This document shows positions 2,671 through 55,787 of a stretch of DNA of 64,000 nucleotides, piece by piece. The stretch's first letter is position 1. Each line of letters opens with the position of its first letter. This stretch comes from a phage. The DNA lies in the sequence record PZ495249.1, one strand, 5' to 3'. A program made the position numbers and the translations under genes. The notes beneath the pieces were generated by a model. That model saw only the letters and a program-made list of their open reading frames with translations. It was not told the DNA's origin and searched no databases.

Positions 2671-4629
2671 TTATCCGCCAGTTGATGAACCACCACTTGA
2701 CATTTGTAATGTCAGTGACTGAGTGTATGAGTTACTGAATTCATTCATACGAGCATCAAACATGTTCTGGAATCCGTAGCTGTCTGGTGTAATCAGAACT
2801 TGGAACGCCTCTTTAGGGATCGTCAGAGTGTTCTGTACTAATAGTTGAGACTGCGTAGGACGATAAGAGTTAGCACCAAGAGTTGCTTGGTTAGCAGCAA
2901 AACTGTATGGGTCCATACTTGCGTAGCTGTTTGCAAATCCAACCTGGTTCGGACCGAGAGCAGCCTGTCCAGCCATAAGGTTAGGATCTTGTACGCCAGG
3001 GATCATGTTCAGATTGGCTGCGCTATTCATCATACTATTCCAACGAGCTACCAACCAACCAACTGCACTATCTTCATAGTACAAGCCGTTATCGGAAAGT
3101 TTTTCATGCTTATTCTCAGGATTAATACTTACAACCCAACTTGCAAGAGATGCAAGAGCGACAGCAATTTCACCCGCTGATTTACCGATCTCTTTCGCTG
3201 CATTCATGAATAGAGGAACATTCTTCTGGAACTCAGGAGCTTCCTTCATTGCATCCATGAAACCAACCACCATGTTAGCGCTAAAACCGTCACCGAACTG
3301 ATTCATTTTCTCTGAAAGAATAACGTACTGTTGAGCGGCTTTGATTTGTTGATCAGTTAGCGCACCACCAGTTTGAGTTAACTGGCGAACCATGTCCATG
3401 TACTCTTTACCGTTGTCCAGGAACATACGTTGGTAGTGCATTAAGTCATCACCTAAGTTTTCCATTAGACGACCAATCTGCGCAGAGTTCATACCACGAC
3501 GCTGACCTTCATTCACAGTTGCCTGGATAAAGTCAAGAGGTCTGTTCTGGAATTGTTTAAGCTGATCAATGTTCCAACCAAACTGGTTCATGATATCGTT
3601 AATACCGCTATCACCACCTTTCCACTTCCCTGATTTTTGGTCAAAGGTAGAGTTCATCGCAGAGTTACCTAAGCGTTCACGAACGTCTTTGATGTTGTCG
3701 ATTGCTTTGATGATGTTAGCTGAGTCAACACCGTTCACACGTCCCCAGGCTTGCATAGCTAAGATTGCGTTAGGGTTAGTCTGTACGTTCTGAGCACCAC
3801 GAGAAATCATGTTGGTACGTTCAGCACTCTTCGACATTGTTTCCTGAATACGGCGTAGTCCTTCAACCACTCCAGCACCAAGAATAGCCCCTGCAATCAT
3901 GCTTGGGTTAAGTCCTAAACCACCTTCTTTGATTCTATCATAACGACGAGCACGATCTCTTGCTCTTTGATCCTGTTCACGCTTCTGTTCACGTTCACGA
4001 AGTTTACGTTCTCTTTCACGTTGACGAATACGGGCTTTTGCGATAGCCTCTTCTTCACGTTTGACACGGCGACGGCCTCTCACTTCATCTTCGATCTCTG
4101 CGTTCTTAGCGCGGTGAGAACGACGAATGTTATCAAGCTGATGAGCCATTGTTTGGTTTAAACGTTGAAGAGTGATTTGCTCTTGACGATATAAATCTAA
4201 CGTCTGTGAGACAATACGGTTTGCTTGTTGGAGTGTAGCGTTATCGGCTTTTGGAAGCTGTGCTGCTCGGAACGAGAAGTTTTCCATCTTCATGTTCGCG
4301 ATATCATTTCTACGTACAGCCGGATCTACCTTCGGTGGTTTTGGCGGCTTAGGTGGACGTGGAGGAGGTGGCGCGGGTGGTGGATTACCACCGCCAGCAC
4401 CTGGAGGAGGATTGCCCCCTCCGGCTCCGCGCATAGCGTCACGAATACGTTTAGCGTAACGTTCCATCTCTTGCATCTGGCGTCTAATCTTCGTCATGTT
4501 CAATGACGGTTGAATACCTTCCGCAAAATTTTTGATACCTTGGATGGAATCCTTTGCCTCTTTCAGACTCTGTTTATCCACCGTAAAGGTAACGGTGTTT
4601 TTGATTTTCGAAGTGTTAATTTCTAACAA
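2671..4629 (-). CDS. putative tail tape measure protein, 652 aa
   Basis: Position after tube/sheath/chaperone genes; charged coiled-coil stretch (RQRERERKLREREQKREQ...); Pro/Gly-rich repeat GGGNPPPGAGGGNPPPAPPPPRPPKPPKPP. Confidence 0.5.
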   Translation of the reverse strand: MLEINTSKIKNTVTFTVDKQSLKEAKDSIQGIKNFAEGIQPSLNMTKIRRQMQEMERYAKRIRDAMRGAGGGNPPPGAGGGNPPPAPPPPRPPKPPKPPKVDPAVRRNDIANMKMENFSFRAAQLPKADNATLQQANRIVSQTLDLYRQEQITLQRLNQTMAHQLDNIRRSHRAKNAEIEDEVRGRRRVKREEEAIAKARIRQRERERKLREREQKREQDQRARDRARRYDRIKEGGLGLNPSMIAGAILGAGVVEGLRRIQETMSKSAERTNMISRGAQNVQTNPNAILAMQAWGRVNGVDSANIIKAIDNIKDVRERLGNSAMNSTFDQKSGKWKGGDSGINDIMNQFGWNIDQLKQFQNRPLDFIQATVNEGQRRGMNSAQIGRLMENLGDDLMHYQRMFLDNGKEYMDMVRQLTQTGGALTDQQIKAAQQYVILSEKMNQFGDGFSANMVVGFMDAMKEAPEFQKNVPLFMNAAKEIGKSAGEIAVALASLASWVVSINPENKHEKLSDNGLYYEDSAVGWLVARWNSMMNSAANLNMIPGVQDPNLMAGQAALGPNQVGFANSYASMDPYSFAANQATLGANSYRPTQSQLLVQNTLTIPKEAFQVLITPDSYGFQNMFDARMNEFSNSYTQSLTLQMSSGGSSTGG

Positions 4630-9993: not shown

Positions 9994-10995
9994 TTAAGCA
10001 GTAGTCAGACGAACAACCAGTTCTGGGCGAGTGTTAACTGCCAGAAGAGAGAATTCAGACTGTAGCTGAACTGTACGGTGTTCTGATACCATGAAGGTAT
10101 ACAGTTCACGAGCAACAGTGTTCGCCAGTTCAGGTGTGTCAGCAGGAGCGTAGTGCGCCTGGAACATATCTGGGATACCCATTGGCAGCACGAATGCTTC
10201 ACCAGCAGGGATGTTTCCGTGGATATCTTCGATGTAAGTTACACCGTTCCATTCGAACACTTGAACGTCCATGTTGCCACTCAGACGGTCACGCAGCAGG
10301 TTTGGAGTACCTTGGAAATACTGGTACGCCTGACGCACGAACGGAGAGTTCACCAGAGAGGCGAAGAACTCGCGAGAGCACAGAGCGATGATACGAGTAG
10401 CGGTAGAACCGTCTTGTTTCTCGTCGATGATGTACGCACGAGCTTCCTGTTCTACAGTTGCCGCAGGGGAAACAGTAGTAGAAGTGAAGTCGATTGGTAC
10501 AACTTTCTGTGTTGCGTTCCATTCTGTGTACCAGTTGTACGCAGAGTTAGCTGCACCACCTGGTCCATTGTACGCGAAACCACGTACTGCATCAGCAAAG
10601 ATAGTTTCTTTGGTTTTGGCTACGTCGCGCATGATTTGAGTCATGTAGCGGTTAACAACTTCCGCTTCGGTACGAAGACTATCGTTGATACCAGCCATAG
10701 CGAAGCTACGGAAGGATTGGATATCCTGTGCCTTAATGTTCTTATCCAGAGGGAAGAACGGAATACGGAAGACTTTAACGCTTGGTGCGTCCATAGTCAG
10801 GAAGTTACGTTCACCACCACGTTCACGGGCAGGAATCAGACCATCAGCGTTTTTCTGTTTACCGATTTCGATAGCAGTAGTCGCGTGATAGTGAGTGTCG
10901 AACAGGCCAAGACTTGCGATCAGAGTATCAGGGGTGTCCTGTAACTCGATCATTGGGCTAAAGTCTACAACCTGGTCCAGAATAATAGCTGGCAT
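9994..10995 (-). CDS. major capsid protein, 333 aa
   Basis: Size and position (after decoration/scaffold genes, before a strong terminator) typical of a major capsid gene. Confidence 0.6.
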   Translation of the reverse strand: MPAIILDQVVDFSPMIELQDTPDTLIASLGLFDTHYHATTAIEIGKQKNADGLIPARERGGERNFLTMDAPSVKVFRIPFFPLDKNIKAQDIQSFRSFAMAGINDSLRTEAEVVNRYMTQIMRDVAKTKETIFADAVRGFAYNGPGGAANSAYNWYTEWNATQKVVPIDFTSTTVSPAATVEQEARAYIIDEKQDGSTATRIIALCSREFFASLVNSPFVRQAYQYFQGTPNLLRDRLSGNMDVQVFEWNGVTYIEDIHGNIPAGEAFVLPMGIPDMFQAHYAPADTPELANTVARELYTFMVSEHRTVQLQSEFSLLAVNTRPELVVRLTTA

Positions 10996-12560: not shown

Positions 12561-13040
12561 TTAGTCCTTCTTGACTATTCTACCCATAGCGCCAATGCTC
12601 AAGCCTTTAAGAACTCCGTCCTTACGTGCTTGGTATAGCTCTGCGTCGTAGAATTGGATTTTAACGAGAGGTGTACCTTCAACAACGAGTTCGTCACCAA
12701 TATAACAATCAACTTCATTAACCCATGCTTTAACTGGTTTAAATTTGTCAGTGTTTTTCAAGTGACCAAGATTGCCACTTACGTTGGCAATGTTTGCGTT
12801 GAAGTTGTCAACCATCTTTCTGATCTCAAGGTCAGACATACGTTCACCGTGAAGGTCGTCGTATTCTGGTGGACAATACATCACTTCGATAACTTGCATT
12901 TGTTCTTCATCAAACTTATTGTGTTTGATTACTTGCGCAGGTGTATCTTCTGGTGTAGAATCTTGTTGAGATGTGGAATCCTTACCCATAGCTTTAAAGG
13001 TTTCGAATAGATTCCAAAGTGTGTCTTTATTCAGTTCCAT
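12561..13040 (-). CDS. head morphogenesis protein, 159 aa
   Basis: ORF between portal and scaffold-like gene. Confidence 0.35.
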   Translation of the reverse strand: MELNKDTLWNLFETFKAMGKDSTSQQDSTPEDTPAQVIKHNKFDEEQMQVIEVMYCPPEYDDLHGERMSDLEIRKMVDNFNANIANVSGNLGHLKNTDKFKPVKAWVNEVDCYIGDELVVEGTPLVKIQFYDAELYQARKDGVLKGLSIGAMGRIVKKD

Positions 13041-13135
13041 GAGGTTCCTCGTAAAAACAAATATCCCATAAATCTTAGTCTACAGGATATTCGCTTATTT
13101 GTCAATACCTAAATTAAAAATTTTTCAAATTATTT

Positions 13136-14704
13136 TTAATTCGATAAATTTGCTGCTGAGTTGTCGGTTGCTGATGGGCTTGTTGAAGTGCCGTTTCCGG
13201 CTCCTGCTGCGAGTCCATCCCCAGAGCGTGAGGTTTTATCCGGTAAGAACGTAGCTGAGAACTCAGCCCACTTCTCAGGGCTTGTCACAATATCATCAGG
13301 GATACGATAGTTGATTCCACACATTGCGTAGAACTGGTTCATAACTTCTGGTGTCACTGCGATAGCTCCGGCTGCTACCAGTTGCTGGATAGCTTTGGCA
13401 TTTACCTCGATATTAGGATCGCCAATGTCATCACTGACAAACTTAGGCATATCTTCATCAGATAAGAAAATACCGTTAAGGCGAAGCATCTGCGGAATTA
13501 ACTGCGTATTGATGGCTTCTACCACGATATCAACATCACGTTCAATAAAGTGTGATAGTAATGTTTGTTTGTTATCGGATAATGCAAAACTACCTGCATC
13601 TCCGTCACCCATAATCAGAACACCTGCACCGAAACGGTTAAAGATATCCAGCTTACGCTGTTTGATTAGGGCTTGTGTGTCAAACTGTTTACCTGTACCT
13701 TGAACACCCTGGAAAGCAAGATCATATTGACGCATTACCGTTCCTTCGTAAACGTCAGAAGGTAGCACCATGTATGACTGCTCACCTGCGTGTAGGTTGG
13801 CAATATTAGCCTGTAGCACACGTAGAGATTGTGCCTCATCACCTTCTGGGTTCAGAGATGCACGATTAAGAATGTCGCTTGGAACCATCAGCACTGGCAT
13901 ACCGCCAAGGTCTTTTGATACCCCAACAACTTCGTATTCTTGGATCAGAGATTTCTCACGCCATGATCTGTACACTGCTAACAGTGGACTCACACCGAGA
14001 GGGTTATTCTCTGTAATATTGCTCCCGACATAAAGCACCTTATCCATCGGGATTTCTTTACGACCAAGCAGAGATACGTTAGTGCCTGGTGTCACCATAG
14101 ATCCGGTGATATTCTGGTTCACCGTAAGAATTGTGCGACCATCAGCAGAATAAGTGAAAGGCTCTGATAGATCAATTGTATCCTGGGGTCTAAACGCCAA
14201 TTTAGTAATGCGATAGTAACCGAAATACGGACTCTTTGGATCTTCGTCAAGTTCAAATACTTTCTCCGCAAACGCGAAACCAAACTGCTTGTATGTCAGT
14301 AATGAACGAACATACTGGCGAAGTGGAGCGTTCATGTTACGCAGAGCGAAGTCAACAAATTTTGCAGCCTTTCTTGACTTAGCTGATTTAACGTTGTATT
14401 CTATTGTGAAATCAAAGAATGCTCTGTCTACAAAGATATAGGTAGCGTCAAGAGCAGTTGCTACGTCTGGGTCTTCGCCCATCTCTTTGTACGTGCGGAT
14501 ATTCTCTGGGAAGCGAGTTTCATATGGCTGCATGAAATTCGTAAAGGCTTTGATTGAATTAAGCCCGATAGTACCAATTTCAGGCGACAGGAGTAAACTC
14601 TTTTCCTGCTGTGCTGTCTTAGTCGGTGAAAGTGTGGCTTTATTCGTCGTACCTTTGTTCCAGTAATCCGATTTTTTAGTGTACTTACGTTTTTCCGTTG
14701 ACAC
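13136..14704 (-). CDS. putative portal protein, 522 aa
   Basis: About 520 aa ORF directly downstream of the large terminase. Confidence 0.55.
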   Translation of the reverse strand: MSTEKRKYTKKSDYWNKGTTNKATLSPTKTAQQEKSLLLSPEIGTIGLNSIKAFTNFMQPYETRFPENIRTYKEMGEDPDVATALDATYIFVDRAFFDFTIEYNVKSAKSRKAAKFVDFALRNMNAPLRQYVRSLLTYKQFGFAFAEKVFELDEDPKSPYFGYYRITKLAFRPQDTIDLSEPFTYSADGRTILTVNQNITGSMVTPGTNVSLLGRKEIPMDKVLYVGSNITENNPLGVSPLLAVYRSWREKSLIQEYEVVGVSKDLGGMPVLMVPSDILNRASLNPEGDEAQSLRVLQANIANLHAGEQSYMVLPSDVYEGTVMRQYDLAFQGVQGTGKQFDTQALIKQRKLDIFNRFGAGVLIMGDGDAGSFALSDNKQTLLSHFIERDVDIVVEAINTQLIPQMLRLNGIFLSDEDMPKFVSDDIGDPNIEVNAKAIQQLVAAGAIAVTPEVMNQFYAMCGINYRIPDDIVTSPEKWAEFSATFLPDKTSRSGDGLAAGAGNGTSTSPSATDNSAANLSN

Positions 14705-18449: not shown

Positions 18450-18524
18450 TGGTTGTAGCAGATGGAATCGAACCATCATCAATCGGTTATCAGCCGAACG
18501 TATTAGCCGTTATACTATGCCACA
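18450..18524 (-). tRNA. tRNA-Ile (anticodon GAU)
   Basis: Encoded CCA, 7-bp acceptor, T-arm GATGG-AATCGAA-CCATC, anticodon loop reads CUGAUAA. Confidence 0.55.
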
Positions 18525-18530
18525 ATTGTT

Positions 18531-18613
18531 TGGCATCCAGGTGAGGAATCTAACCCCTTGAAACTGGTTTTGGAGGCCAGCAACGGGAACACCCATTTTT
18601 AATCTACCCAGAT
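18531..18613 (-). tRNA. degenerate tRNA-like element or pseudo-tRNA
   Basis: Preceded by the ATTGTTTGG boundary motif; acceptor stem possible with two G.U pairs; T-loop degenerate (AATCTAA); no clean anticodon arm. Confidence 0.2.
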
Positions 18614-18619
18614 ATTGTT

Positions 18620-18695
18620 TGGAGGCGGGAGCCGGAATCGAACCGACCTGCGACAAGCATATGAAACTTGTGAGTTCCCAGAACTCTATCCCGCA
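18620..18695 (-). tRNA. tRNA-Met (anticodon CAU)
   Basis: CCA encoded; T-arm GCCGG-AATCGAA-CCGAC; anticodon loop UUCAUAU; position 1-72 appears mismatched. Confidence 0.5.
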
Positions 18696-18699
18696 CTTT

Positions 18700-18775
18700 T
18701 GGTTGATAGTAAGAGAATCAAACTCTTCTCACAACGCCGTATGAAAGCGTCCGAAACATCAGCTTCACACTATCA
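18700..18775 (-). tRNA. tRNA with CAU anticodon (Met, fMet or Ile-lysidine)
   Basis: Perfect acceptor (TGATAGT/ACTATCA), T-arm AAGAG-AATCAAA-CTCTT, anticodon loop UUCAUAC. Confidence 0.5.
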
Positions 18776-18776
18776 A

Positions 18777-19040
18777 TTAAACACGATGGATTATTTTAAC
18801 TGTCTCACCCTTATCATTCATAAGGTAGGCACTTTCATTCCTATGAATAAAGTCCGTAGAGTTGCCACTAATGACACTTGCAATAACACCATCCAGCTTA
18901 TCATAACCTTCAAAATGATATTGGATGTGTATATTTCCATCAAGTTCTATATAATGTTCTTCTTCATCTACCTCGTAAGGTACTGAGTCATAAATTTTTG
19001 TCCCTTTGGGGAACTTGCGAACTATTTTCAATGTATACAT
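18777..19040 (-). CDS. hypothetical protein, 87 aa, inside the tRNA array
   Basis: ORF with good SD (GAAGGAAATACT-ATG); no recognisable motif. Confidence 0.4.
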   Translation of the reverse strand: MYTLKIVRKFPKGTKIYDSVPYEVDEEEHYIELDGNIHIQYHFEGYDKLDGVIASVISGNSTDFIHRNESAYLMNDKGETVKIIHRV

Positions 19041-19124
19041 AGTATTTCCTTCGTAGTGTTTATATTAGTAATATGCCGTCCCAAGCCGAACGGCGATTAG
19101 TGTTTTAGCTTGGCATTGATAATA

Positions 19125-19199
19125 TGGTACTTCCTGGAGGAATCGAACCACCGACGCTCACCTTGTAAGGATGACGTTCTACCATTGAACTAAGGAAGT
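19125..19199 (-). tRNA. tRNA-Val (anticodon UAC)
   Basis: CCA encoded; perfect acceptor ACTTCCT/AGGAAGT; T-loop AATCGAA; anticodon loop CUUACAA. Confidence 0.55.
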
Positions 19200-19272
19200 A
19201 TGGCGGGGATTTTCCGCACTGTCTATCGCGATATGGACTCGGACAGTGTTCTCGGCTAAATACCCCATTGTT

Positions 19273-19359
19273 TGGTACATCAGGTCAGACTCGAACTGAC
19301 ACGCCCTCACGAGCACTGGAACCTAAATCCAGGGCGTCTACCAATTTCGCCACTGATGC
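19273..19359 (-). tRNA. tRNA-Leu (anticodon UAG), type II
   Basis: 87 nt with long variable arm; T-arm GTCAG-ACTCGAA-CTGAC; anticodon stem CTGGA/TCCAG; loop UUUAGGU. Confidence 0.55.
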
Positions 19360-19367
19360 ATTTAATT

Positions 19368-19444
19368 TGGTGGAGAAGTGGAGAATCGAACTCCATACTC
19401 GAAGGTGCAAACCTCGTGTTTTAACCGAATATTACTACATCCCC
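19368..19444 (-). tRNA. tRNA-Ala (anticodon UGC)
   Basis: CCA encoded; T-arm TGGAG-AATCGAA-CTCCA; anticodon loop UUUGCAC. Confidence 0.45.
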
Positions 19445-19506
19445 AATTTGTATACACTACACAGAAGATAGGTCTGATTGCCTCGGCAGTTGCCGTAGTG
19501 TTTATC

Positions 19507-25244: not shown

Positions 25245-26942
25245 CTATTTCACCTCAATCAGATGATTCATAACCTCTTTATCCAGACGCGCACGAATAT
25301 CGTTGAAATCTTCATCTCGACCGTTCACCTGCGGAATCAGCACATCTCCGTTACGGAAGATTGGCTGCAACAGGTTATCTTCATCGTTGATCTCGTTGAA
25401 GGAGATGTTGTCAACCTGACGGATAACACCATCGTCACCACGAACAACTTTGATGAAGCCTTTCGCAGAGCGTTTACCTGGATCAGTTTTCGGCTCTTTG
25501 CTCACCATGATTTCGTAATCGTCAATGAAGCAACCAGTAGCTTTCACAGCAATACCGAAGGTATCACGAGTGTTGAACTGGTAGGTGAAGCTACCAACAC
25601 CGAATACGATGTTTGAGGAAGCAAAACCGTTACGTTTCAGACGAGACAGAATTTCAATCTCACGCTGAACAGTGATTGAATCACCGTAAATCATGCCGAT
25701 ATGAGTATCCAGCACTTTGTAACCTTTGTTGTTCACTTCACCACCGAAGATTTCCCACAGGATCTGGATAGAACCTACCGCCTCATGGCGTGGAATCTCA
25801 CGGTCTTCGTCGATCAGCCAGTAAATATTCTCTTCTTTCAGGAACGCAACTTCTGTCAGGATATGACGAGAAGTGTTAATGAAGTGTTCACGATTCTCGA
25901 ACTCTTCAATATGATAACCAGCAACAACATGTACCGGATTACCTGAGTCAGGGCGAATAACCAGGCGACCATCACGAGCCATAATCTCTTCTTTCAGTTC
26001 GCTCAGGATGCGAGTCAGTACAGTCCAGTAATCGTAGGAGTCAGCAACGTAAGAGCAGAAACCTTTAGGAACCACTTTGGTAATAAAGTGCAGCAGGAAT
26101 TCTTTCTCTGCAAGATAACGGAGGCCATCAACATCACCTGCGAGGTGAGGGAAATGCTCTTCGAGATCTTTTACGATACGACTGATGTTTGTAGTTGCCA
26201 CAGAGTGCTCAGACGCAGGGATACTACCAGCAACGAAATCATCTTCATCAATACCGTAGTATTCGTAAACCGCGTCGATTGCCAGAATGTTATCTGTACC
26301 AGTGAACGCTGCCAGGTGAGCGATACCGCTCTTATAGCCGTCTTCAATACAAGATAAACCGCGCAAACTGAAATCGTGACACTGGAAATTAACGTGATCC
26401 ACATTGTCACAAGTTGCCAGTGCATATGACATTGCCACACGCTTGTACTGGAACGCAGCAGTTGCGTTGGTGATCGCTTTCCAGCTTTCGGTTGACATTA
26501 CGGTTTCAACGTAGTTAGTCACCCAGAAGAATTTCTCAATCGTATTGTGAATGGTATAAACCGGAACACCAATCGGAGACAGAATACCTTCTGGCAGAGC
26601 ACGAATTTCCAGAGGCAGGTAGCCTAAATCGTGCAGTTCACCCCAACATTCAGCGCTTGGCGCAGATTCACCGAGTGATTTTTTAGCCATGCGATCAAAA
26701 CGCTTAACGGCTGCTTCTCGCTTCATCTTGAAGAATTTCTTCCACATGCCTACCATTGAGTCCATCACCATACGGCGGAAGCCGATGACGATAACACCGC
26801 GAGCATTTTTATCTGCGTAATGCGCAAAGTTCTTGTCATTACGTGGAGTCAGGTTAGAGAAGATCAGTTTAGTGTTTGGATTGTACATTGGCTTGTGACC
26901 AGGTTTGTACCAATCGGCAGCAGACGGTGCATAAATTTCCAT
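25245..26942 (-). CDS. nicotinamide phosphoribosyltransferase family protein (NAMPT/NadV-like; candidate Namat of an NAD+ reconstitution pathway), 565 aa
   Basis: Length and motifs typical of NAMPT-family enzymes (GSIPASEHS, IRPDSGNP, GMIYGDSI, FGVGSFTYQ); adjacent to a PRPP-synthetase-like gene. Confidence 0.7.
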   Translation of the reverse strand: MEIYAPSAADWYKPGHKPMYNPNTKLIFSNLTPRNDKNFAHYADKNARGVIVIGFRRMVMDSMVGMWKKFFKMKREAAVKRFDRMAKKSLGESAPSAECWGELHDLGYLPLEIRALPEGILSPIGVPVYTIHNTIEKFFWVTNYVETVMSTESWKAITNATAAFQYKRVAMSYALATCDNVDHVNFQCHDFSLRGLSCIEDGYKSGIAHLAAFTGTDNILAIDAVYEYYGIDEDDFVAGSIPASEHSVATTNISRIVKDLEEHFPHLAGDVDGLRYLAEKEFLLHFITKVVPKGFCSYVADSYDYWTVLTRILSELKEEIMARDGRLVIRPDSGNPVHVVAGYHIEEFENREHFINTSRHILTEVAFLKEENIYWLIDEDREIPRHEAVGSIQILWEIFGGEVNNKGYKVLDTHIGMIYGDSITVQREIEILSRLKRNGFASSNIVFGVGSFTYQFNTRDTFGIAVKATGCFIDDYEIMVSKEPKTDPGKRSAKGFIKVVRGDDGVIRQVDNISFNEINDEDNLLQPIFRNGDVLIPQVNGRDEDFNDIRARLDKEVMNHLIEVK

Positions 26943-27011
26943 TTGTTTCTCCTTTCTCTTGTTTGTTTCGATGAGGAGAAGATTAAGTTATCCTCTCCAC
27001 AAAGTCAACAC

Positions 27012-27911
27012 TTATTTGTAATTTTTACGAAGATTGCCGTTCAGAATGAAATTCTGGAGCGCTTGTTGGTTTAACACCAGTTTACCTGTCTCGTCAACAT
27101 TATTCTCCCACACATTGAAAGAATGGATGCAATCAAAGTGCTCATTTAGTTCTTTCATACCCTTAGAGAAGATACCGTGGGTAACGAACAGTTCAATCTT
27201 ACCAGCGTTACGTTCACGCAATACTTTGGCAAGCTCAATGAAAGTACGACCACCATCGCAGATATCATCCACGATCATCAAATTCTTACCGCAGAAGTCC
27301 TCGACGTTGATGTTGGTCTTGACAATATCTCCGGTCTTCGTATCACGGATTTTCTCTGCACAGTGTACAATGAGTTGCATTGGTTTAGCCAGTTTGAAGA
27401 TTTTCTTCAAGGCTCCACCGTCTGGACTAACCAGATCAAACTCTTCCATACGGAGTTTCCAGTTAATCGCGAACATTGCAATCTCTTCTTGTGGGATAAC
27501 AAACAAGTTATGGATTACAGCCGGAGTTACATCACTGTGCGGATCAGCAACAGTCACACGGTCAAAGTTAAGGTTGTTAAGTGCTTCTGCAAACGCACCG
27601 ATACCATTGGCTTCACCTGGTTCACACACTCGGTCTTGTCGAGCATATGGCACATAGAGCATAACAAGCTCTGTTGTGTGAGGGATGAATTTAAGAATGT
27701 TATCAATTGCATTCTTAGTCATCAGCAACACCATGAAGTCATTACCTGATCTTACTTCGTGATGGATAATCACACGAGAACCTGGTTCAGTTAATGCAAT
27801 CATCGTGTCTGCATCAACACGTACATGTTCTTCTCCGCCAGAGAAGGTGAATGTTTTGATTGGTACAGGATAAACTTCACTGTTGTGTGGGTGCATGATA
27901 TCAATCTTCAT
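27012..27911 (-). CDS. ribose-phosphate pyrophosphokinase family protein (Prs-like; candidate Adps), about 300 aa
   Basis: PRPP-binding-loop-like LMIVDDICDGGRTF; start placed at MKIDIM because the longer track ORF overlaps the upstream gene. Confidence 0.65.
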   Translation of the reverse strand: MKIDIMHPHNSEVYPVPIKTFTFSGGEEHVRVDADTMIALTEPGSRVIIHHEVRSGNDFMVLLMTKNAIDNILKFIPHTTELVMLYVPYARQDRVCEPGEANGIGAFAEALNNLNFDRVTVADPHSDVTPAVIHNLFVIPQEEIAMFAINWKLRMEEFDLVSPDGGALKKIFKLAKPMQLIVHCAEKIRDTKTGDIVKTNINVEDFCGKNLMIVDDICDGGRTFIELAKVLRERNAGKIELFVTHGIFSKGMKELNEHFDCIHSFNVWENNVDETGKLVLNQQALQNFILNGNLRKNYK

Positions 27912-28113
27912 TGTCTTCCTCCTCTTCTTCAATTTCTTCAATTTCACTTAAACGATCAAGAATTGTCTGAGCCTGGTCCCAGAGAGCATCATAGGCTCTA
28001 CGCTCACGAGGAGATAGCTGTGAAGGTCTGAAATCATCTTGGTACATCTTATCAATAATATCTTGCATATCGTTCGATGTATTCTCGAACATACAATAAC
28101 TCATGTTTGACAT
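27901..28113 (-). CDS. small acidic protein, 70 aa
   Basis: ORF upstream of the Prs-like gene; C-terminal EIEEIEEEEEDNED. Confidence 0.35.
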   Translation of the reverse strand: MSNMSYCMFENTSNDMQDIIDKMYQDDFRPSQLSPRERRAYDALWDQAQTILDRLSEIEEIEEEEEDNED

Positions 28114-44646: not shown

Positions 44647-44649
44647 TAT

Positions 44650-44676
44650 CAAGGGGCGAAAGCCCCTTTATTTTTC
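44650..44676 (+). terminator. intrinsic terminator after nrdA
   Basis: AGGGGC-GAAA-GCCCCT hairpin followed by TTATTTTTC. Confidence 0.45.
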
Positions 44677-44687
44677 TAAGGAGGATT

Positions 44688-45026
44688 ATGAATTCTATAA
44701 TCGTATTGTCTGGAGTAACAAAGCTATTACCACTCAAGAATTATGTCCTGGTTGATCCAAAAGATTTCACATTAGATTGGTGTTGTCAGTTTATCGGGGG
44801 AATGAATTTTACGAATGCGGAGATCTGGGAGTCTTCTGACTCTAAGGCAACTGCATATACACTCTCCAGAGTAAGAACTTATGGTTCAGAATTTAGTGTG
44901 CTACTGACACAAAGCGTGTGGAATGGTCTGGAAGAATACTATCGAGAACATGGTGTGGAAGAGAGTGAGATAGAAGTGTTAAAATCATGGTGTGATATTG
45001 TGGAGGATTTAAATGGCAGCAATTAA
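44688..45026 (+). CDS. hypothetical protein, 112 aa, between nrdA and nrdB
   Basis: SD TAAGGAGGATT-ATG. Confidence 0.4.
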   Translation: MNSIIVLSGVTKLLPLKNYVLVDPKDFTLDWCCQFIGGMNFTNAEIWESSDSKATAYTLSRVRTYGSEFSVLLTQSVWNGLEEYYREHGVEESEIEVLKSWCDIVEDLNGSN

Positions 45027-46570: not shown

Positions 46571-47566
46571 ATGCGATACCTGGTGACAGGTGGGCTTGGA
46601 TTTATTGGGAGCGCGGTAGTGCGCTCTCTGCATAAAAACCCACTTAACGAAATCTATGTTGTTGACAAATGGGGCTATGCCTCCGATCCACGTAATCTTA
46701 CACTCACCCCAGATGTAAGATTCTGTAAGTTAGACTTGACAGACCTCGTGTTAACTGTTAAGATGCTGGCTGACATTAATCCAGATTACATTATCCACTT
46801 GGCGGCTGAAAGCCATGTTGACAATTCAATCTCTGCTCCAAAAGCATTCATTGAGTCAAATGTAATCGGTACGTTCAATCTGCTTGAAGCAGTGCGGTAC
46901 ATGGGTAACAGATCAAAGCTCAAGAAGTTCCTACATGTCTCCACAGACGAAGTGTACGGCGATTTGAGCGTAGAAGATGTTCCGTTTACCGAAGACACAC
47001 CTTATGCCCCAAGTAGCCCGTACAGCGCGTCTAAGGCAGCGAGTGACCATCTGGTACAAGCTTGGCATCGTACCTACGGAATTCCAACCGTAATTACCAA
47101 TTGCTCGAACAACTTTGGTGCATATCAGCATCCAGAAAAGTTGATTCCCCGTGTAATTACGAGTATCATGATCGGTAAACAGATTCCTGTCTATGGGAAC
47201 GGTTTACAAGTAAGGGATTGGTTGTTTGTCGATGACCATGTAGATGCCTTGCTTCTGGCACTCACCGAAGGTAAGGTGGGAGAAACATATAATATCGGTA
47301 GTCGCAACCCTCGTACCAATATGGAAGTAATTTATATGATCTGTGATTATATGGATGCTGTCCATGCAGACAAGGGTTTCTATCCTGCATCAAATCTTAT
47401 TAAATTCGTTAGTGATCGCCCTGGTCATGACACTCGTTATGAGATTGATCCTACGAAGTTGGAGACAGAGTTAGGATGGGCTACTGAGGGTACATTCGAA
47501 GAGAAACTTTATCAAACCATTGAGTGGTATATTGCTCACGACTTATGGTGGCAGAATAAAGTTTAA
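46571..47566 (+). CDS. rmlB: dTDP-glucose 4,6-dehydratase
   Basis: N-terminal Rossmann GGLGFIGS; short-chain dehydrogenase catalytic YxxxK (YSASKAA); 331 aa. Confidence 0.8.
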
Positions 47567-47574
47567 GGAGGAGC

Positions 47575-48501
47575 ATGAAAGGTATTATCCTTGCGGGTGG
47601 CAGTGGCACTCGTTTGTATCCGGTGACTAAAGGGGTAAGCAAGCAATTGCTCCCCATTTACGATAAACCGATGATCTACTATCCACTATCTGTATTAATG
47701 CTGGCAGGGATAAACGATATCTTAATTATCACAACACCCGAAGATCAGCGTAATTTCCAACAGCTTCTTGATGACGGAGAAGACTTAGGAATCAGCATCA
47801 CCTATGCAACTCAGGATCAACCAAGAGGGTTGGCAGAAGCCTTTATTATCGGTGAAGATTTCATTGGTGATGATTCTGTAGCCCTTGTCCTCGGAGATAA
47901 TTTATTCTTTGGACAAAGTTTCGGTACTCTCTTACATTGTGCAAAAGAGCATGTGGAATTCTATGGCGGAGCCGGAGTATTTGGTTATCGAGTGAACGAT
48001 CCTGAACGATTCGGTGTTGTAGAGTTCGATGACTCAGGTAAGGTTGTGAGTATTGAAGAGAAACCTGTTAATCCTCGCAGCAATTATGCAGTTACTGGAC
48101 TTTATTTCTACGACAATTCTGTGATTCAGAAAGCCAAAGAAGTGCAACCTTCTGCTCGTGGTGAATTGGAGATTACAGACATTAACGAAATGTACCTTAA
48201 AGAACGTGCGCTCCAAGTGTGGAAACTGGGAAGAGGTTTCACTTGGCTTGACACAGGTACACATGCAAGTTTAATGGAGGCATCTCAGTTTGTGCATACA
48301 ATTGAGAAACAGCAAGGAATGAAACTCGCTTGCCTTGAAGAAATTGCATTTATGAATGGGTGGATTACAGCAGAGCAACTTATTCTGACAGGAACTGCCC
48401 TGGCTAAAACAGAATATGGACAATATCTGCTTTCATTAGGAGGGGTTAGATGGAAAGCACAATTAACGTCAGAGAAACCAGCATTGAAGGTCTTGTCGTA
48501 A
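47575..48501 (+). CDS. rmlA: glucose-1-phosphate thymidylyltransferase
   Basis: Signature N-terminus [39 protein letters not shown]. Confidence 0.85.
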
Positions 48502-49019
48502 TAACACCGAGGGTGTTCGGTGATGACCGAGGATTTTTCCTTGAGTCTTTCAACCAAGCCCGATATGATAACCTTATTGGTGAACACACGTTTGTTCAAG
48601 ATAACCACTCCCGTTCTACGAAAGGAGTCCTCCGTGGACTCCACTACCAAGAAACAAATCCCCAGGGGAAATTAGTGAGATGCACAAGCGGCATGGTATT
48701 TGATGTGGCTGTGGACTTACGTGAAGGTAGTCCGACCTTCGGAGAATGGGAAGGTGTTGTACTTAGTGAACAAAACAAAACGCAATTCTGGATTCCACCA
48801 GGATTCGCTCATGGCTTTGTCGTTATCTCAGACGTAGCCGATTTCGAATACAAATGCACTGAATATTACGATCCAACCTCGGAACGCAGTTTACTCTGGA
48901 ATGATCCTGATGTAGCTGTCGATTGGGGATTTGACTTAATCTTTGGTGATGAAAATTATCAGCCTATTCTATCTCAGAAAGATCGAGAGGCCAAAACCCT
49001 ACGGGAGATTTTTGGATGA
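48450..49019 (+). CDS. rmlC: dTDP-4-dehydrorhamnose 3,5-epimerase
   Basis: Cupin epimerase motifs ([17 protein letters not shown]); SD TAGGAGGGGTTAG-ATG; overlaps rmlA 3' end. Confidence 0.75.
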
Positions 49020-49852
49020 AACGATATTTAGTATTGGGTGGTAATGGTCAATTAGGCCAAGCACTCAATAAAGTGAAGCCGGAAGATGTAGATTTAATTT
49101 ATCCTGAACGTTGTGATATTACCGATTTCAAACAGGTGAAGGATCTAATCGTACAAACTATGCCGGAAGCAGTTATCAACTGCGCAGCATATACAGCCGT
49201 CGATAAAGCCGAAGAGGATATGCAGACTGCAATTAGTGTTAATGCATACGGTGCTGCAAATATTGCGAAAATCTGTGGTGAACTTTACATTGACTTAATT
49301 CACATTTCGACGGATTATGTCTTTGATGGTTCATTCCCTGGTATTGAGGGTGCTGAAACAAATCCGTTAAATGTCTACGGTTACTCCAAGCGTTTCGGTG
49401 AAGAATTAGTTCACGCGGTTCATCCTGGGGCATTAATTATCCGTACAGCTTCTGTGTATAGCGAATTCGGTAACAACTTCCTGAAAACTATGTTAAGCCG
49501 CTACAACGGCGGTCAACGTGAGTTTGATGTTGTCTGCGATCATTACTCCTGTCCAACATATGCTCCAGATCTTGCTGAAATGATTTTCACAATGTTGGAA
49601 TATGGTGTTGGTGGTCGTATTCTTCATTACGCAGGTAAAGAATATTTAAGCTGGTATGACTTTGCGACACGTATCTTCTGGGAAATAGATATGACGGTTA
49701 AAGTAAACCCAGTATCTGCTGCTCAGTATAACTCCAAGGCAGTACGACCTGCCAAATCCTATCTTGAAACCAAAGGGTTCCTGACTCCAAAACCAGTAGC
49801 CCACGGTATTAACGAATCACTGAAAGTTCTATTAAATAAGGAGAGAGAATGA
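49016..49852 (+). CDS. rmlD: dTDP-4-dehydrorhamnose reductase
   Basis: N-terminal Rossmann LVLGGNGQLG; 278 aa; position after rmlC. Confidence 0.75.
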   Translation: MKRYLVLGGNGQLGQALNKVKPEDVDLIYPERCDITDFKQVKDLIVQTMPEAVINCAAYTAVDKAEEDMQTAISVNAYGAANIAKICGELYIDLIHISTDYVFDGSFPGIEGAETNPLNVYGYSKRFGEELVHAVHPGALIIRTASVYSEFGNNFLKTMLSRYNGGQREFDVVCDHYSCPTYAPDLAEMIFTMLEYGVGGRILHYAGKEYLSWYDFATRIFWEIDMTVKVNPVSAAQYNSKAVRPAKSYLETKGFLTPKPVAHGINESLKVLLNKERE

Positions 49853-51601: not shown

Positions 51602-52093
51602 ATGGCATTTGTTGAAATAGGTAGAAGCGGTATTGACGAGTGTTACCAAGCGGGTTTAGTAAAGCCGAACGAGTTCCGGCAGATTTATGTAAACAAGATT
51701 GAACAAGAGATCGCTCTCTTACTTGAAAACCTAACACTTAAACAAAAGTGGGGAATGTTCAAATCTTGGTTAAAGAATGAGGATTGGATTTTATCCCATT
51801 ACCAGGAACTTTCTGATAGTAAAGACGGACTGTTTGAGTGTATAATAGAGATAGCCGCCTCAAATCCACAACTTCTTCATATTGATGAAGAAGATTCCAA
51901 ACTACTTTTCCTAAGCAGTATTTTCCACAAGAAATCCTTACTCGTTCGAGAGTGCAGTGATTTATTTAATCACCCGCTCACCCGTACCGAGAAGATTCTG
52001 GTGGACAAAGAAACGTTACGCGCAATTGACTATCTACGAAAATACGTGAACGGTGGAAAAGCAGTTCTTAAAACATTGCAGGAGGAAGAATAA
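51602..52093 (+). CDS. hypothetical protein, 163 aa
   Basis: ORF with SD (ATGGAGGATAA). Confidence 0.4.
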   Translation: MAFVEIGRSGIDECYQAGLVKPNEFRQIYVNKIEQEIALLLENLTLKQKWGMFKSWLKNEDWILSHYQELSDSKDGLFECIIEIAASNPQLLHIDEEDSKLLFLSSIFHKKSLLVRECSDLFNHPLTRTEKILVDKETLRAIDYLRKYVNGGKAVLKTLQEEE

Positions 52094-52782
52094 TGACAAC
52101 GATTATTGCAACAAAGACTAAGATTCTAAGCGACGGTAAAACTACCGTAGGCAATCGTGTAGACGATTACGACTTTAAGAAAGTACGTAAGATTGGGGAT
52201 TATCTGGTCGGTGGCGCTGGTCGTCTAACCTCCATCCTCACATTCTTCGCCTGGTTTGAGCAGAATCTGCAATGTCAAGCGGCACAAGAATCTATCCCAG
52301 GGTTGATGATTCAATCAGATCCTGACAAGGACGACGAAGACTTCATTGCGTTAGTTGTCCATCCTGACGGTAAAATTTTCATCCACGAAGGTGCTGATCC
52401 TCGTCGAGCATTCCCAATCGAGCGTGAATACTACGCTGTTGGTAGTGGTGCAGACTTCGCATTAGCGGCGCTTGATGCCGGAGCCACTCCAGAACAAGCA
52501 ATGGAAGTTGCAAAACTCCGTGATGCTTTCTCGGGTGGTGAAACTTTCGTAGAAGAACGCGAAGAAATTGTTGACATTACTGATGAAGATCTGAGAAACT
52601 TCTCAAGAGAGCAGCTTCTGAATCTGCTTCTTACTGGTTCTCCAGAAGGTGATGCAGCACAACAGTTGCTGGCTACGCCGGAAGAAGAACATCCTAAAGG
52701 TGATACTGGTGAAATGGGAGTTTCTTGTGGTATTCCTGGTGTTGCAGGTGCTACTTTTACAACTCCTTCACTGGGCGCTTAA
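52093..52782 (+). CDS. HslV-like N-terminal-nucleophile peptidase with acidic C-terminal extension, 229 aa
   Basis: MTTIIATKTKIL...GNRV...KKVRKIGDYLVGGAGRLTSILTFF and AVGSGADFALAA parallel HslV (Thr at position 2). Confidence 0.55.
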   Translation: MTTIIATKTKILSDGKTTVGNRVDDYDFKKVRKIGDYLVGGAGRLTSILTFFAWFEQNLQCQAAQESIPGLMIQSDPDKDDEDFIALVVHPDGKIFIHEGADPRRAFPIEREYYAVGSGADFALAALDAGATPEQAMEVAKLRDAFSGGETFVEEREEIVDITDEDLRNFSREQLLNLLLTGSPEGDAAQQLLATPEEEHPKGDTGEMGVSCGIPGVAGATFTTPSLGA

Positions 52783-53751: not shown

Positions 53752-53955
53752 ATGGCCTACAACTACTATCTTGTGTATGTTCACGAGAACACGAAAGAAG
53801 ACACTGGAACGAACGTCTACGCTGAGTCGGAAGACCATGCAAAGGCTATCGGGGCAGTTCTTCTTACACGCATGACAGGGGAAGAATTTACATCGGCTGA
53901 TGTTTACGCAGAAGTAGATCCTGATATGCAAGAAGATGATATCACAACCACTTGA
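53752..53955 (+). CDS. hypothetical acidic protein, 67 aa
   Basis: ORF with SD (AAGGATGATTA). Confidence 0.35.
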   Translation: MAYNYYLVYVHENTKEDTGTNVYAESEDHAKAIGAVLLTRMTGEEFTSADVYAEVDPDMQEDDITTT

Positions 53956-53980
53956 CAATAGTTTTGTGTTAGTGCATACT
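53952..53980 (+). promoter_or_regulatory. sigma70-like promoter
   Basis: TTGACA - 17 nt - CATACT upstream of the recombinase gene. Confidence 0.3.
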
Positions 53981-54005
53981 CATTGAAACAGCATAGGAGG
54001 GTGTC

Positions 54006-54668
54006 ATGAAATTCGTACTTTACCATCGTCTTTCCAAAAAGAAACAGCAAGGCAACCAATACGGTATTGAATCACAGGAAGTTGATATTCAACGTTTCCT
54101 GGACTCGCAAGAGAACTATACCGTGATCGGGACTTTCGCTGAATACTACTCTGGTAAAGGTGACTGGAAGCAACGTAGAGAACTGGTGAAAGCCGTGGAA
54201 CTCTGCAAAGCAACTGGTGCAACACTTGTGGTTGCAAAGGTTGACCGTTTAGGTCGTAACACTGCCTCAGTTGCAACGCTTCTCGAAATGGTGAATGTTC
54301 GTATTGCTACGATGCCCTCCGCTGAGAATATGGTGATTAATATCCTCGCCGTTCTCGCAGAAGAAGAAGCACGAGCGATCTCTGATCGTGTGAGAAAAAG
54401 TTTGAAAGTTGCCAAAGAGAAAGGTATACTCCTTGGTGCTGCAAATGAAAAATACAATCGTACAGATTACTCTAAGAGAGAGGAATCAAAGCGCTCTATG
54501 GAATTTGCCATGAGCATGAAAGATTCCCTTGTTGCTTTCCGTTCAATGAACACACCGTTCATGACAATTGCAAAGCATCTTAACGAAAGCGGTAAAACTA
54601 CTATCCGAGGCAGCAAGTTTGATGCGAAAGCTGTCCAGCGCTTATGTTCTAAGTTAGAAATCAACTGA
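54006..54668 (+). CDS. serine recombinase (resolvase/invertase family), 220 aa
   Basis: Catalytic-domain motifs YHRLSKKKQ (Ser nucleophile), LVVAKVDRLGRN, and the E-rich helix EEEARAISDRVRKSL. Confidence 0.5.
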   Translation: MKFVLYHRLSKKKQQGNQYGIESQEVDIQRFLDSQENYTVIGTFAEYYSGKGDWKQRRELVKAVELCKATGATLVVAKVDRLGRNTASVATLLEMVNVRIATMPSAENMVINILAVLAEEEARAISDRVRKSLKVAKEKGILLGAANEKYNRTDYSKREESKRSMEFAMSMKDSLVAFRSMNTPFMTIAKHLNESGKTTIRGSKFDAKAVQRLCSKLEIN

Positions 54669-54679
54669 GGAGGTTTGGT

Positions 54680-54874
54680 GTGATTACCCATGAGGAGACA
54701 ATCGTCAAGAATTTTCCGTCAAAACGTCAGATGGTGGAGTTTGTCCATTTTCTGGAGGCTGACGAAATACTTATCCAACGTCAAGGGGAAACCTGGAACG
54801 TTTTATACAATGCCAACAAAACCACTGTAACTCTGTCCGAAGATGATTTCTCCGAGGTAGACGTTATGAGTTGA
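54680..54874 (+). CDS. hypothetical protein, 64 aa
   Basis: Short ORF after the recombinase gene. Confidence 0.35.
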   Translation: MITHEETIVKNFPSKRQMVEFVHFLEADEILIQRQGETWNVLYNANKTTVTLSEDDFSEVDVMS

Positions 54875-55475: not shown

Positions 55476-55787
55476 ATGAGAATCACAACAGAAGGTGCTT
55501 TAGTCAACAAAGGTAGGGAGATCTTGGAAAGCCATTTCCCAGACATTGAGAAAACTCCTGGTTATCTTGGCTGGCGTATGCAAGAAACTGTGGATTTTCT
55601 CCCTCATCAAACTTCAATATTTCTTCTCGTCAAAGTAGAAGGTGACACGCCATACAAAGATGTAGCGGAGCACATCGAAAGAGTAGAAGACGTGGCTTAC
55701 GCCGAATTTGCCTACCTGGATATCGCACCAGAATTAGAAGGGAAGGTGAATATATTTATTCTAATGGATTTTGAGGAGGAGACATGA
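55476..55787 (+). CDS. hypothetical protein, 103 aa
   Basis: SD GAGGAGGAGGG-ATG. Confidence 0.4.
   Translation: MRITTEGALVNKGREILESHFPDIEKTPGYLGWRMQETVDFLPHQTSIFLLVKVEGDTPYKDVAEHIERVEDVAYAEFAYLDIAPELEGKVNIFILMDFEEET

Follow-up and report, generated by a model that had tools for sequence, protein, structure and literature searches.

A conserved small serine recombinase gene in phi92-like phages and its possible role at a single genomic site

The 64,000-nucleotide stretch of phage DNA analysed here (record PZ495249.1, referred to below as the window) carries between positions 54006 and 54668 a gene for a small serine recombinase. Our comparisons show that this gene is a near-universal component of the phi92/phAPEC8-type subfamily (Stephanstirmvirinae), that it is kept under strong purifying selection and that it behaves as a single-gene cassette bearing its own promoter. 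The best explanation overall, which we put forward tentatively, is that of an intact and selected recombinase that would be made early and would act at a single phage site for resolution or cyclisation.

The gene, its product and its promoter

The original prediction, made from the nucleotide sequence alone, had assigned a resolvase/invertase-type serine recombinase to exactly this open reading frame (ORF) and quoted the motifs YHRLSKKKQ and VDRLGRN. Both motifs are present, and the 220-residue product matches the Pfam family Resolvase (PF00239) over residues 4-140 with a score of 74.4 bits (E=1.3e-20), the curated cut-off being 23.3 bits. The protein also matches PHROG 125, 'DNA invertase' (1.3e-29); its matches among the solved structures are the resolvases Sin, Tn3 and gamma-delta, with Gin giving a weaker one. 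Tyr6, Arg8 and Ser10 are in register with Tyr6, Arg8 and Ser10 of gamma-delta, and the Asp/Arg/Arg residues of VDRLGRN correspond to Asp67, Arg68 and Arg71 of the same enzyme. The score above the PF00239 threshold, the Tyr/Arg/Ser and D-R-x-x-R motifs and the presence of helix E place the protein in the serine recombinase superfamily. The AlphaFold model (predicted local distance difference test score, pLDDT, 87) consists of a catalytic beta-alpha-beta core, helix E at residues 108-138, a less confident linker and four C-terminal helices (162-170, 172-180, 185-194 and 207-216). The C-terminal part contains a conserved motif, IAxxLNxxGxxTxRGxxFxxxxVxRL, similar to the one that is typical of the beginning of the recombinase domain in large serine recombinases (IAxxLNxxGxxTxxGxxWxxxxVxxIL). 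A Pfam search with this domain alone gave no family match; the domain probably binds DNA.

Conservation of the catalytic residues is high. In the alignment of 27 sequences, with 32-92% identity to the query, D80, R81, R84, E121 and R128 are invariant and Y6, R8 and S10 show at least 90% conservation; the N-terminally truncated sequence P0080 is among the few exceptions. Between the window and phi92 the proportion of nonsynonymous differences (pN) is 0.105 and that of synonymous differences (pS) is 0.83, the synonymous sites being saturated. The exact recombinase protein is present on 15 metagenome contigs, the longest of 153.7 kb, and six contigs with the identical protein differ from the window at 11-23 nucleotides of the gene, all of these differences being synonymous. 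A homologue was found in 161 phage records, of which about 135, estimated from identity bands and organism names, appear to be of the Stephanstirmvirinae type, compared with 137-139 records matching the flanking backbone. Because the catalytic residues are conserved, pN is low relative to pS and the prevalence of the gene is about that of the backbone, we conclude that the gene is under selection, with catalysis evidently retained. The original prediction had named missing recombination sites or isomeric arrangements, together with a catalytic serine that is not conserved, as speaking against it; no sites were found, as described below, but the serine is conserved.

The closest relatives in the phage collection searched are phi92 gp053 (YP_009012384.1), which has the same length, and its Justusliebigvirus orthologues, all at 87% identity, followed by the proteins of a Klebsiella phage (79%), of Phapecoctavirus members such as phAPEC8 (about 59%) and of FBKp34 (50%); large Vibrio and Shewanella phages possess homologues at 33-48% identity. 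Homologues occur in phages of hosts as different as Escherichia, Klebsiella, Vibrio, Shewanella and Cellulophaga. The recombinase is an orthologue of a gene annotated since the publication of the phi92 genome and as such already known, while the cassette-like relocation and the conserved promoter, both described below, are modest new observations. Three complete relatives, assembled from unannotated records, were used for the comparisons: Justusliebigvirus alia (OZ035799.1), 'A145' (MG065645.1) and the Phapecoctavirus MRostami-2023b (OQ031492.1).

The gene is preceded by a sigma-70-type promoter match that ends 26 nt 5' of it and whose -35 hexamer overlaps the stop codon of the gp054 homologue. 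Matches of this 10/12 type are no commoner in the region than in shuffled sequences, and a single one proves nothing alone. However, TTGAC(A/T) followed by a 17-18 nt spacer and a -10-like hexamer was found 5' of the homologous recombinase gene in all eight lineages examined (the window clade; phi92/alia/A145; phAPEC8/MRostami-2023b; phiWec179; FBKp34; Shewanella 1/40; Vibrio P1; qdvp001), and the hexamers are kept where the spacer sequence differs and where the recombinase occupies another locus. Since the element recurs in every lineage, including those with the relocated gene, the own promoter postulated by the original prediction appears to be real. A conserved sigma-70 promoter would in turn imply transcription by the unmodified host RNA polymerase, i.e., early. 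The AGGAGG ribosome-binding site is annotated also in phi92 gene 053. Another promoter-like match (TTGAAA, 17-nt spacer, TATACT; 10/12) is located inside the recombinase ORF at 54402-54430 and could be due to chance or could serve as an internal promoter for downstream genes. No terminator-like site was found between the recombinase gene and the following gp052 homologue, and the two are probably co-transcribed.

Comparison with MRostami-2023b, whose backbone is collinear with the window, delimits the promoter-plus-gene unit precisely. There the gp054 homologue is followed, after 45 bp containing a hairpin and a ribosome-binding site, by the gp052 and gp051 homologues, and the recombinase gene is absent from this place. 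It is found instead at 10027-10692, about 16 kb away and in the opposite orientation relative to the backbone, within a left-end block of small early genes (the phAPEC8 annotation was also consulted). The recombinase gene of FBKp34 also appears to lie in the left-end block, and in Shewanella phage 1/40 it is situated two genes from a DprA-like gene, recalling the arrangement of phi92. Only the promoter and the gene change position while the neighbours stay put, and no repeats or target duplication were found at the cassette edges. We considered the mobilisation of cargo, an idea taken from the recent work on small serine recombinases cited below (PMC13552941), and rejected it, as the neighbouring genes do not follow the recombinase gene when it moves.

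One might suppose on these grounds that the unit is a selfish or free-standing mobile element, a promoter plus a recombinase, persisting without any benefit to the phage. The mobile-cassette option of the original prediction is upheld in so far as presence and absence between the gp054 and gp052 homologues are precise and concern one gene, another locus and orientation are used in Phapecoctavirus and FBKp34, and the gene has its own promoter in every lineage examined. In addition, a 2026 paper describes, for bacteria, a connection between mobile anti-phage defence cassettes and small serine recombinases, leaving the function of the recombinase unassigned (PMC13552941), and an Aeromonas homologue, described in the next section, belongs to an integrated element and stands beside a large serine recombinase. 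On the other side, the recombinase diverges with the backbone and no cargo moves along. The divergence between genera (59% amino acid identity) is within the range of the flanking backbone proteins (55-84%), which we read as the mark of a cassette inherited vertically over a long time and relocated at least once, not of a recent invader. A single copy per genome, near-universal presence, the lack of edge repeats and a domain order opposite to that of the IS607-type serine transposases likewise speak against selfish persistence, which we consider unlikely.

Recombination sites and possible functions

According to the explanation that we favour, the recombinase would be made early from the host sigma-70 promoter travelling with the gene; its dimers would bind a dyad-symmetric site, and two such sites would synapse in a tetramer. 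The four strands would be cut via Ser10 with the formation of phosphoseryl links and 2-nt overhangs, the subunits would rotate and the strands would be religated. Dimer binding, tetramer synapsis, phosphoseryl cleavage and subunit rotation constitute the established mechanism of the serine recombinase family. The single site of the genome would be recombined whenever it occurs in direct repeat, as in replication multimers, concatemers or terminally repeated DNA, and the outcome would be resolution or cyclisation, comparable to the action of Cre/loxP in P1 or of plasmid resolvases. The resolution of replication multimers had also been among the roles considered in the original prediction, and it may still apply. 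We propose this single-site role with low confidence, on account of the replication and recombination neighbourhood of the gene, which lies among ligase, RdgC-like, exonuclease and DprA-like genes, of the single dyads observed in relatives, and of the frequent terminase adjacency in smaller phages.

The latter observations come from the wider family. An exhaustive search yielded 2,422 cluster representatives at E<=1e-10, most of which are 210-245 amino acids long and align end to end at 33-40% identity. The recombinase of the window is thus one clade among these short serine recombinases, which form a large and still uncharacterised family. In IMG/VR, 489 of 600 candidate stretches encode relatives of the recombinase, and the neighbourhoods were sampled in 80 fetched loci, with the gene starts set by a simple longest-ORF rule. 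Within two genes of the recombinase, a large terminase accounted for 10 of the 69 downstream ORFs and a small terminase for 6 of the 52 upstream ones, and a few tyrosine integrases, primases, a methyltransferase and a DprA-like protein were also encountered. In smaller phages the relatives often border on terminase genes, where one would expect a region of terminal redundancy. Strong dyads (at least 10 matched arm bp, span 26-49 bp) were present at -56..-4 of the recombinase start in 9 of 35 loci, compared with 15 of 195 other genes having a comparable upstream gap (odds ratio 4.2, p=0.004). The arms TACAAA...TTTGTA are common to several of these dyads, in three marine phages the dyad overlaps the recombinase promoter, and there is one such dyad per locus within +/-4 kb. 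Such single upstream dyads are what one would expect of an enzyme that binds one site next to its gene, whether for autoregulation, for a single crossover or for both; a local invertible segment would call for another arrangement. A different arrangement was noticed in Aeromonas sp. 55A (contig JBQBEH010000001.1; L025 8001-10218), where a 40%-identical homologue at the edge of an integrated element is convergent with a gene for a 501-residue large serine recombinase, 58 bp apart, so that a small and a large recombinase form a pair.

Several facts weigh against the single-site role in the phi92 clade itself. No candidate recombination site was found in the window or in the close relatives: searches for res-like or dyad sites near the gene gave nothing significant in the window, phi92 and phAPEC8, and the 50-bp region 5' of the gene contains the promoter and the ribosome-binding site only and is too short for a Tn3-type res. 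The TACAAA...TTTGTA arms, sought in the window and its relatives, gave chance matches in coding sequences only. A conserved dyad near the right genome end, described in the next paragraph, is single-copy and is located about 0.45 kb before the right terminal repeat of phi92, thus outside the repeat. The phi92 genome has fixed ends with 343-bp direct terminal repeats, and phages with fixed terminal repeats package their DNA from concatemers, so monomerisation is not obviously of use to them. That relatives in smaller phages lie next to terminase genes may mean no more than that accessory genes have a hot spot there. Finally, a search of the literature revealed no experimental work on the recombinase gene in phi92-like phages, the nearest statement being the speculation in the phage SKA64 paper that the recombinase keeps concatemers as single genomes (PMC10282059). 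A broader form of the single-site idea is that the whole family of about 220 residues represents a widespread but unrecognised phage module of one gene and one site, providing, as a serine-recombinase counterpart of Cre/loxP, cyclisation or monomerisation independent of the host RecA in virulent phages with terminal repeats, or else site-specific exchange between co-infecting genomes; in the phi92 clade the site would be remote from the gene. This generalisation seems to us improbable.

Two groups of palindromic sequences were recorded in the course of the site searches. A genome-wide census of dyads revealed the 35-bp dyad ATTAGCAGCCTATG-CCGGACA-CATAGGCGGCTAAT close to the right end of the genome and beyond the limits of the window (alia 91790-91824, A145 55481-55515, MRostami-2023b 148629-148663). 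Its sequence is maintained between genera, changes in one arm being matched in the other, and it may serve as a signal for packaging or replication. Palindromes resembling GATAATGATAATCATTATC form clusters in the terminal repeat of phi92 (NC_023693.1, 1-343) and on both sides of the repeat region of tail-fibre-type genes (alia ~80200-80310, 91355-91430 and 92359-92572; MRostami-2023b ~140330-140410), while in the window the motif is nearly absent (one 9-mer). We take GATAATGATAATCATTATC to be the Fur-box consensus of E. coli, which one palindrome matches at 17 of 19 positions, and these palindromes were accordingly read as Fur boxes and rejected as recombinase sites.

If the target of the enzyme is not in the phage genome, it could be in the DNA of the host or of a competitor, where a host locus, a prophage, a defence island or a satellite would be rearranged or excised early in infection to assist takeover or counter-defence. 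The promoter for the host RNA polymerase would provide the immediate early expression required for such a function, the failure to find a site in the phage genome would be natural, and the gene has neighbours of the counter-defence type, namely an orphan DNA methyltransferase and Sir2. Host recombinases of the Pin type are reported to alter phage adsorption (PMC12529663; 10.1101/2025.03.28.646004). PADLOC, however, gave no match to the recombinase, and the very different hosts of the phages bearing homologues argue against one conserved target. We therefore rate this possibility low.

The original prediction had also considered an inversion switch. The enzyme would then be a DNA invertase like Gin of Mu or Cin of P1, flipping a segment between inverted crossover sites, for example in the tail-fibre region, and controlling phase or host range. 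GenBank and PHROG do label the protein 'DNA invertase', and the phi92-type phages carry multiple tail fibres and spikes. This part of the prediction was not borne out. The repeat search in the window returned tRNA-derived repeats, ribosome-binding regions, terminators and chance-level pairs but no inverted pair of the crossover type, and self-BLAST of the three complete relatives, covering inverted and direct repeats of at least ~28 bp, gave only rho-independent terminators, AT-rich or self-palindromic elements and repeats in the tail-fibre gene region; crossover sites shorter or more divergent than ~28 bp could escape such searches.

A further argument for an invertase could be drawn from one segment of 0.9-1.3 kb which exists in both orientations, within Justusliebigvirus and between genera, and which is the only exception to the collinearity of the relatives' genomes in pairwise comparison. 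It contains three small genes at the point of divergent transcription (alia 74599-75579, L011 24599-25579; MRostami-2023b 133615-134877; PHB05 locus 3124-3994), and its orientation is flipped between alia and MRostami-2023b, i.e., between Justusliebigvirus and Phapecoctavirus, as well as within Justusliebigvirus in PHB05, and probably also in VEcB, PD06 and others. We nevertheless rejected it as a product of the recombinase: the junctions lack inverted repeats, carry indels of ~200 bp and fall at gene boundaries, and in alia a gene is fused. In PHB05 the identity within the segment is 92.6%, as opposed to 96.7-98% in the flanks, and the segment, which is outside the window, is ~37 kb away from the recombinase gene, whereas known invertase genes abut the segment they invert. 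To all appearances the segment is a rearrangement of old date whose alleles have been distributed by homologous recombination, rather than a conservative site-specific switch, although its ancient origin may have been mediated by the recombinase. Together with the weak match to Gin and the missing HTH_7 domain and Gly-Arg motif, discussed in the last section, this makes an invertase function very improbable. It is equally hard to believe that the protein is a recombinase-derived DNA-binding autorepressor or early-gene regulator that no longer recombines: dyads overlap the own promoter in several family members, as in autoregulating resolvases, and no partner site was found, but the conservation of catalytic residues down to ~32% identity would be unexpected if the chemistry were dispensable.

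Site-specific recombinase genes are treated as red flags of lysogeny in the screening of therapeutic phages, for which phi92/phAPEC8-type phages are candidates. Recognition of a conserved recombinase unrelated to lysogeny in a virulent subfamily, whose 'DNA invertase' label rests on family resemblance only, is therefore helpful for such screening. What a strictly lytic phage does with a catalytically intact site-specific recombinase is a modest but genuine question, and the promoter-plus-gene cassette, its relocation between genera and the upstream dyads in distant family members offer handles for experiments.

Genome context and features of the window

The window derives from an uncultured member of Stephanstirmvirinae related to phi92. 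Megablast with the window DNA gave no match, while blastn detected ~72% DNA identity to Justusliebigvirus and to the Klebsiella phages KP13-26 and FKP3; the guanine-plus-cytosine (GC) content is 43.5%, compared with 37.4-37.6% in three cultured Stephanstirmvirinae. Such low DNA identity despite synteny, together with the GC gap, points to a lineage of the rank of a new genus, whose host may be different as well. The gene order at the recombinase follows that of phi92 and is the same on the metagenome contigs: lysozyme, PhoH, gp059, HslV-like, gp057, methyltransferase, gp055/054, recombinase, gp052, gp051, gp050, NinI phosphatase, gp048 and DprA-like.

The large structural ORFs of the window encode the baseplate hub, tape measure, sheath, major head, portal and large terminase proteins, and the metabolic and replicative ones encode NAMPT, phosphoribosyl pyrophosphate (PRPP) synthetase, ligase, an RdgC-like protein, exonucleases, a polymerase subunit, an HNH protein, thymidylate synthase, a DprA-like protein and ribonucleotide reductase. 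Inspection of the window's 20 largest ORFs revealed neither an integrase nor a repressor, in line with the absence of an integrase-type lysogeny module noted in the original prediction. The early setting in an apparently virulent phage, also stated there, finds support in the position of the recombinase gene within the DNA-metabolism (early/middle) block and in the description of the cultured relatives as strictly lytic (PMC10282059).

Some other features of the window were recorded. The 23 transfer RNA (tRNA) genes are clustered at 18450-23838 on the minus strand; the one at 22066-22140, with the anticodon CTA and the ARAGORN label 'tRNA-Pyl', is potentially an amber-suppressor tRNA. A four-gene dTDP-rhamnose-type pathway (dehydratase, thymidylyltransferase, epimerase and reductase) and genes of NAD salvage (NAMPT and PRPP synthetase) are located at 46571-49852 and 25245-27947, an HslV-like peptidase gene at 52093-52782, and a Sir2 homologue just past the end of the window on metagenome contig L003; all of these are common to the window phage and phi92. 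The ORF between nrdA and nrdB (44647-45012) differs among near-identical metagenome contigs, encoding 113 amino acids on one (L003 529-870) and 222 on another (L004 199-867). The same gap in phi92 holds an HNH endonuclease, and the difference suggests a presence/absence polymorphism of a homing endonuclease. An all-A/T palindrome of ~30 bp, AATTAAAAAT...ATTTTTAATT, is conserved in three genera (window 13112-13141, alia 3684-3716, MRostami-2023b 63431-63458). It directly precedes a TTGACA promoter in the interval that separates the portal gene from the adjacent minus-strand ORF 12561..13040, and may act as an UP element or as the target of a regulator. The features of the recombinase locus are listed in Table 1.

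Table 1. Positions of the recombinase gene, its parts and the adjacent elements in the window
Feature	Position	Strand	Remarks
Sigma-70-type promoter match, TTGACA / 17-nt spacer / CATACT	53952..53980	+	10/12 match; -35 at 53952-53957, -10 at 53975-53980
Promoter-plus-gene cassette	53956..54679	+	Absent from the same backbone position in Phapecoctavirus
Ribosome-binding site AGGAGG	53995..54000	+	5 nt 5' of the ATG; read from the sequence
Serine recombinase coding sequence	54006..54668	+	220 amino acids plus stop, ATG start; ORF list, Pfam, PHROG, alignment
Catalytic domain and helix E, residues 4-140	54015..54425	+	Pfam, conserved columns, AlphaFold, Foldseek
YHRLSKKKQ, residues 6-14	54021-54047	+	
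Ser10, predicted nucleophile	54033-54035	+	Within YHRLSKKKQ
VDRLGRN, residues 79-85	54240-54260	+	
DRLGR motif	54243-54257	+	
Helix E, residues 108-138	54327-54419	+	AlphaFold model
Putative DNA-binding C-terminal four-helix domain, residues 162-216	54489..54653	+	AlphaFold helices; conserved motif
gp052 homologue	54680..54874	+	64 amino acids, GTG start; backbone gene outside the cassette

Comparison with known recombination systems

The invertases Gin, Hin, Cin and Pin belong to the same superfamily, are of similar size and can be phage-borne. The match to Gin is nevertheless weak (E=0.02, residues 55-154 only), no HTH_7 domain was detected in the whole protein or its C-terminus, and neither flanking inverted sites nor an adjacent invertible segment were found in the window and the three complete relatives. 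Resolvases and invertases carry a Gly-Arg minor-groove motif after helix E, in place of which the recombinase has Gly-Ala-Ala-Asn, and the invertase-bearing phages known to us are temperate. Since the similarity to Gin is remote and both HTH_7 and the Gly-Arg motif are missing, the database name 'DNA invertase' is best regarded as a family label and not as a finding.

With the Tn3/gamma-delta and Sin resolvases the recombinase shares the catalytic fold, the Y-x-R-x-S and D-R-L-x-R motifs, helix E and the overall size. The catalytic core is matched by Foldseek to the catalytic domains of Sin, TP901-1 and gamma-delta. The dyad situated over the gene promoter in some family members can be likened to res at tnpR, where res overlaps the promoter of the gene. 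The sequence identity is, however, only ~20-25%, and HTH_7, a three-subsite res, a transposase neighbour and the Gly-Arg after helix E are all missing; the neighbours are phage backbone genes and the upstream gap is 50 bp, so the locus does not resemble that of a Tn3/gamma-delta resolvase. In the IS607-type serine transposases a MerR-like helix-turn-helix precedes the catalytic domain, whereas in the recombinase the catalytic domain is N-terminal, and the match to the ISC1926 TnpA is confined to the catalytic core.

The Cre/loxP system of P1 is a functional analogue only. Cre acts at one loxP per genome, cyclising terminally redundant DNA and resolving dimers, and the proposed cyclisation or dimer-resolution role of the recombinase at one site per genome would be similar. 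But Cre belongs to the tyrosine recombinases, P1 is a temperate phage, and no site corresponding to loxP was found in the phi92 clade.

The large serine recombinases (Bxb1, phiC31, CcrB, TP901-1) provide the best matches over the whole chain. The best structural match of this kind is the Bxb1 integrase (E=1.6e-7 over 251 columns), and among the NCBIfam profiles CcrB (positions 10-227) gives the best alignment, although with 34.7 bits it is far below the cut-off of 900; YneB (31.1 bits, cut-off 175) and Mpi (28.7, cut-off 272) are also below theirs. The C-terminal motif points in the same direction. On the other hand, the protein has 220 amino acids instead of 400-700, has counterparts to no more than the initial helices of the recombinase domain found in the large enzymes and gives no match to PF07508; it has no zinc ribbon or coiled coil, and neither attP/attB sites nor lysogeny accompany it.

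The nearest known counterparts are the 'DNA invertase' phi92 gp053 and its orthologues in Justusliebigvirus and Phapecoctavirus. The window DNA as a whole differs from phi92 in being only ~72% identical and in having 43.5% GC rather than 37.5%, but the recombinase shares with these genes the synteny and the promoter type, and with gp053 it has in common 87% of the amino acids and the same length.

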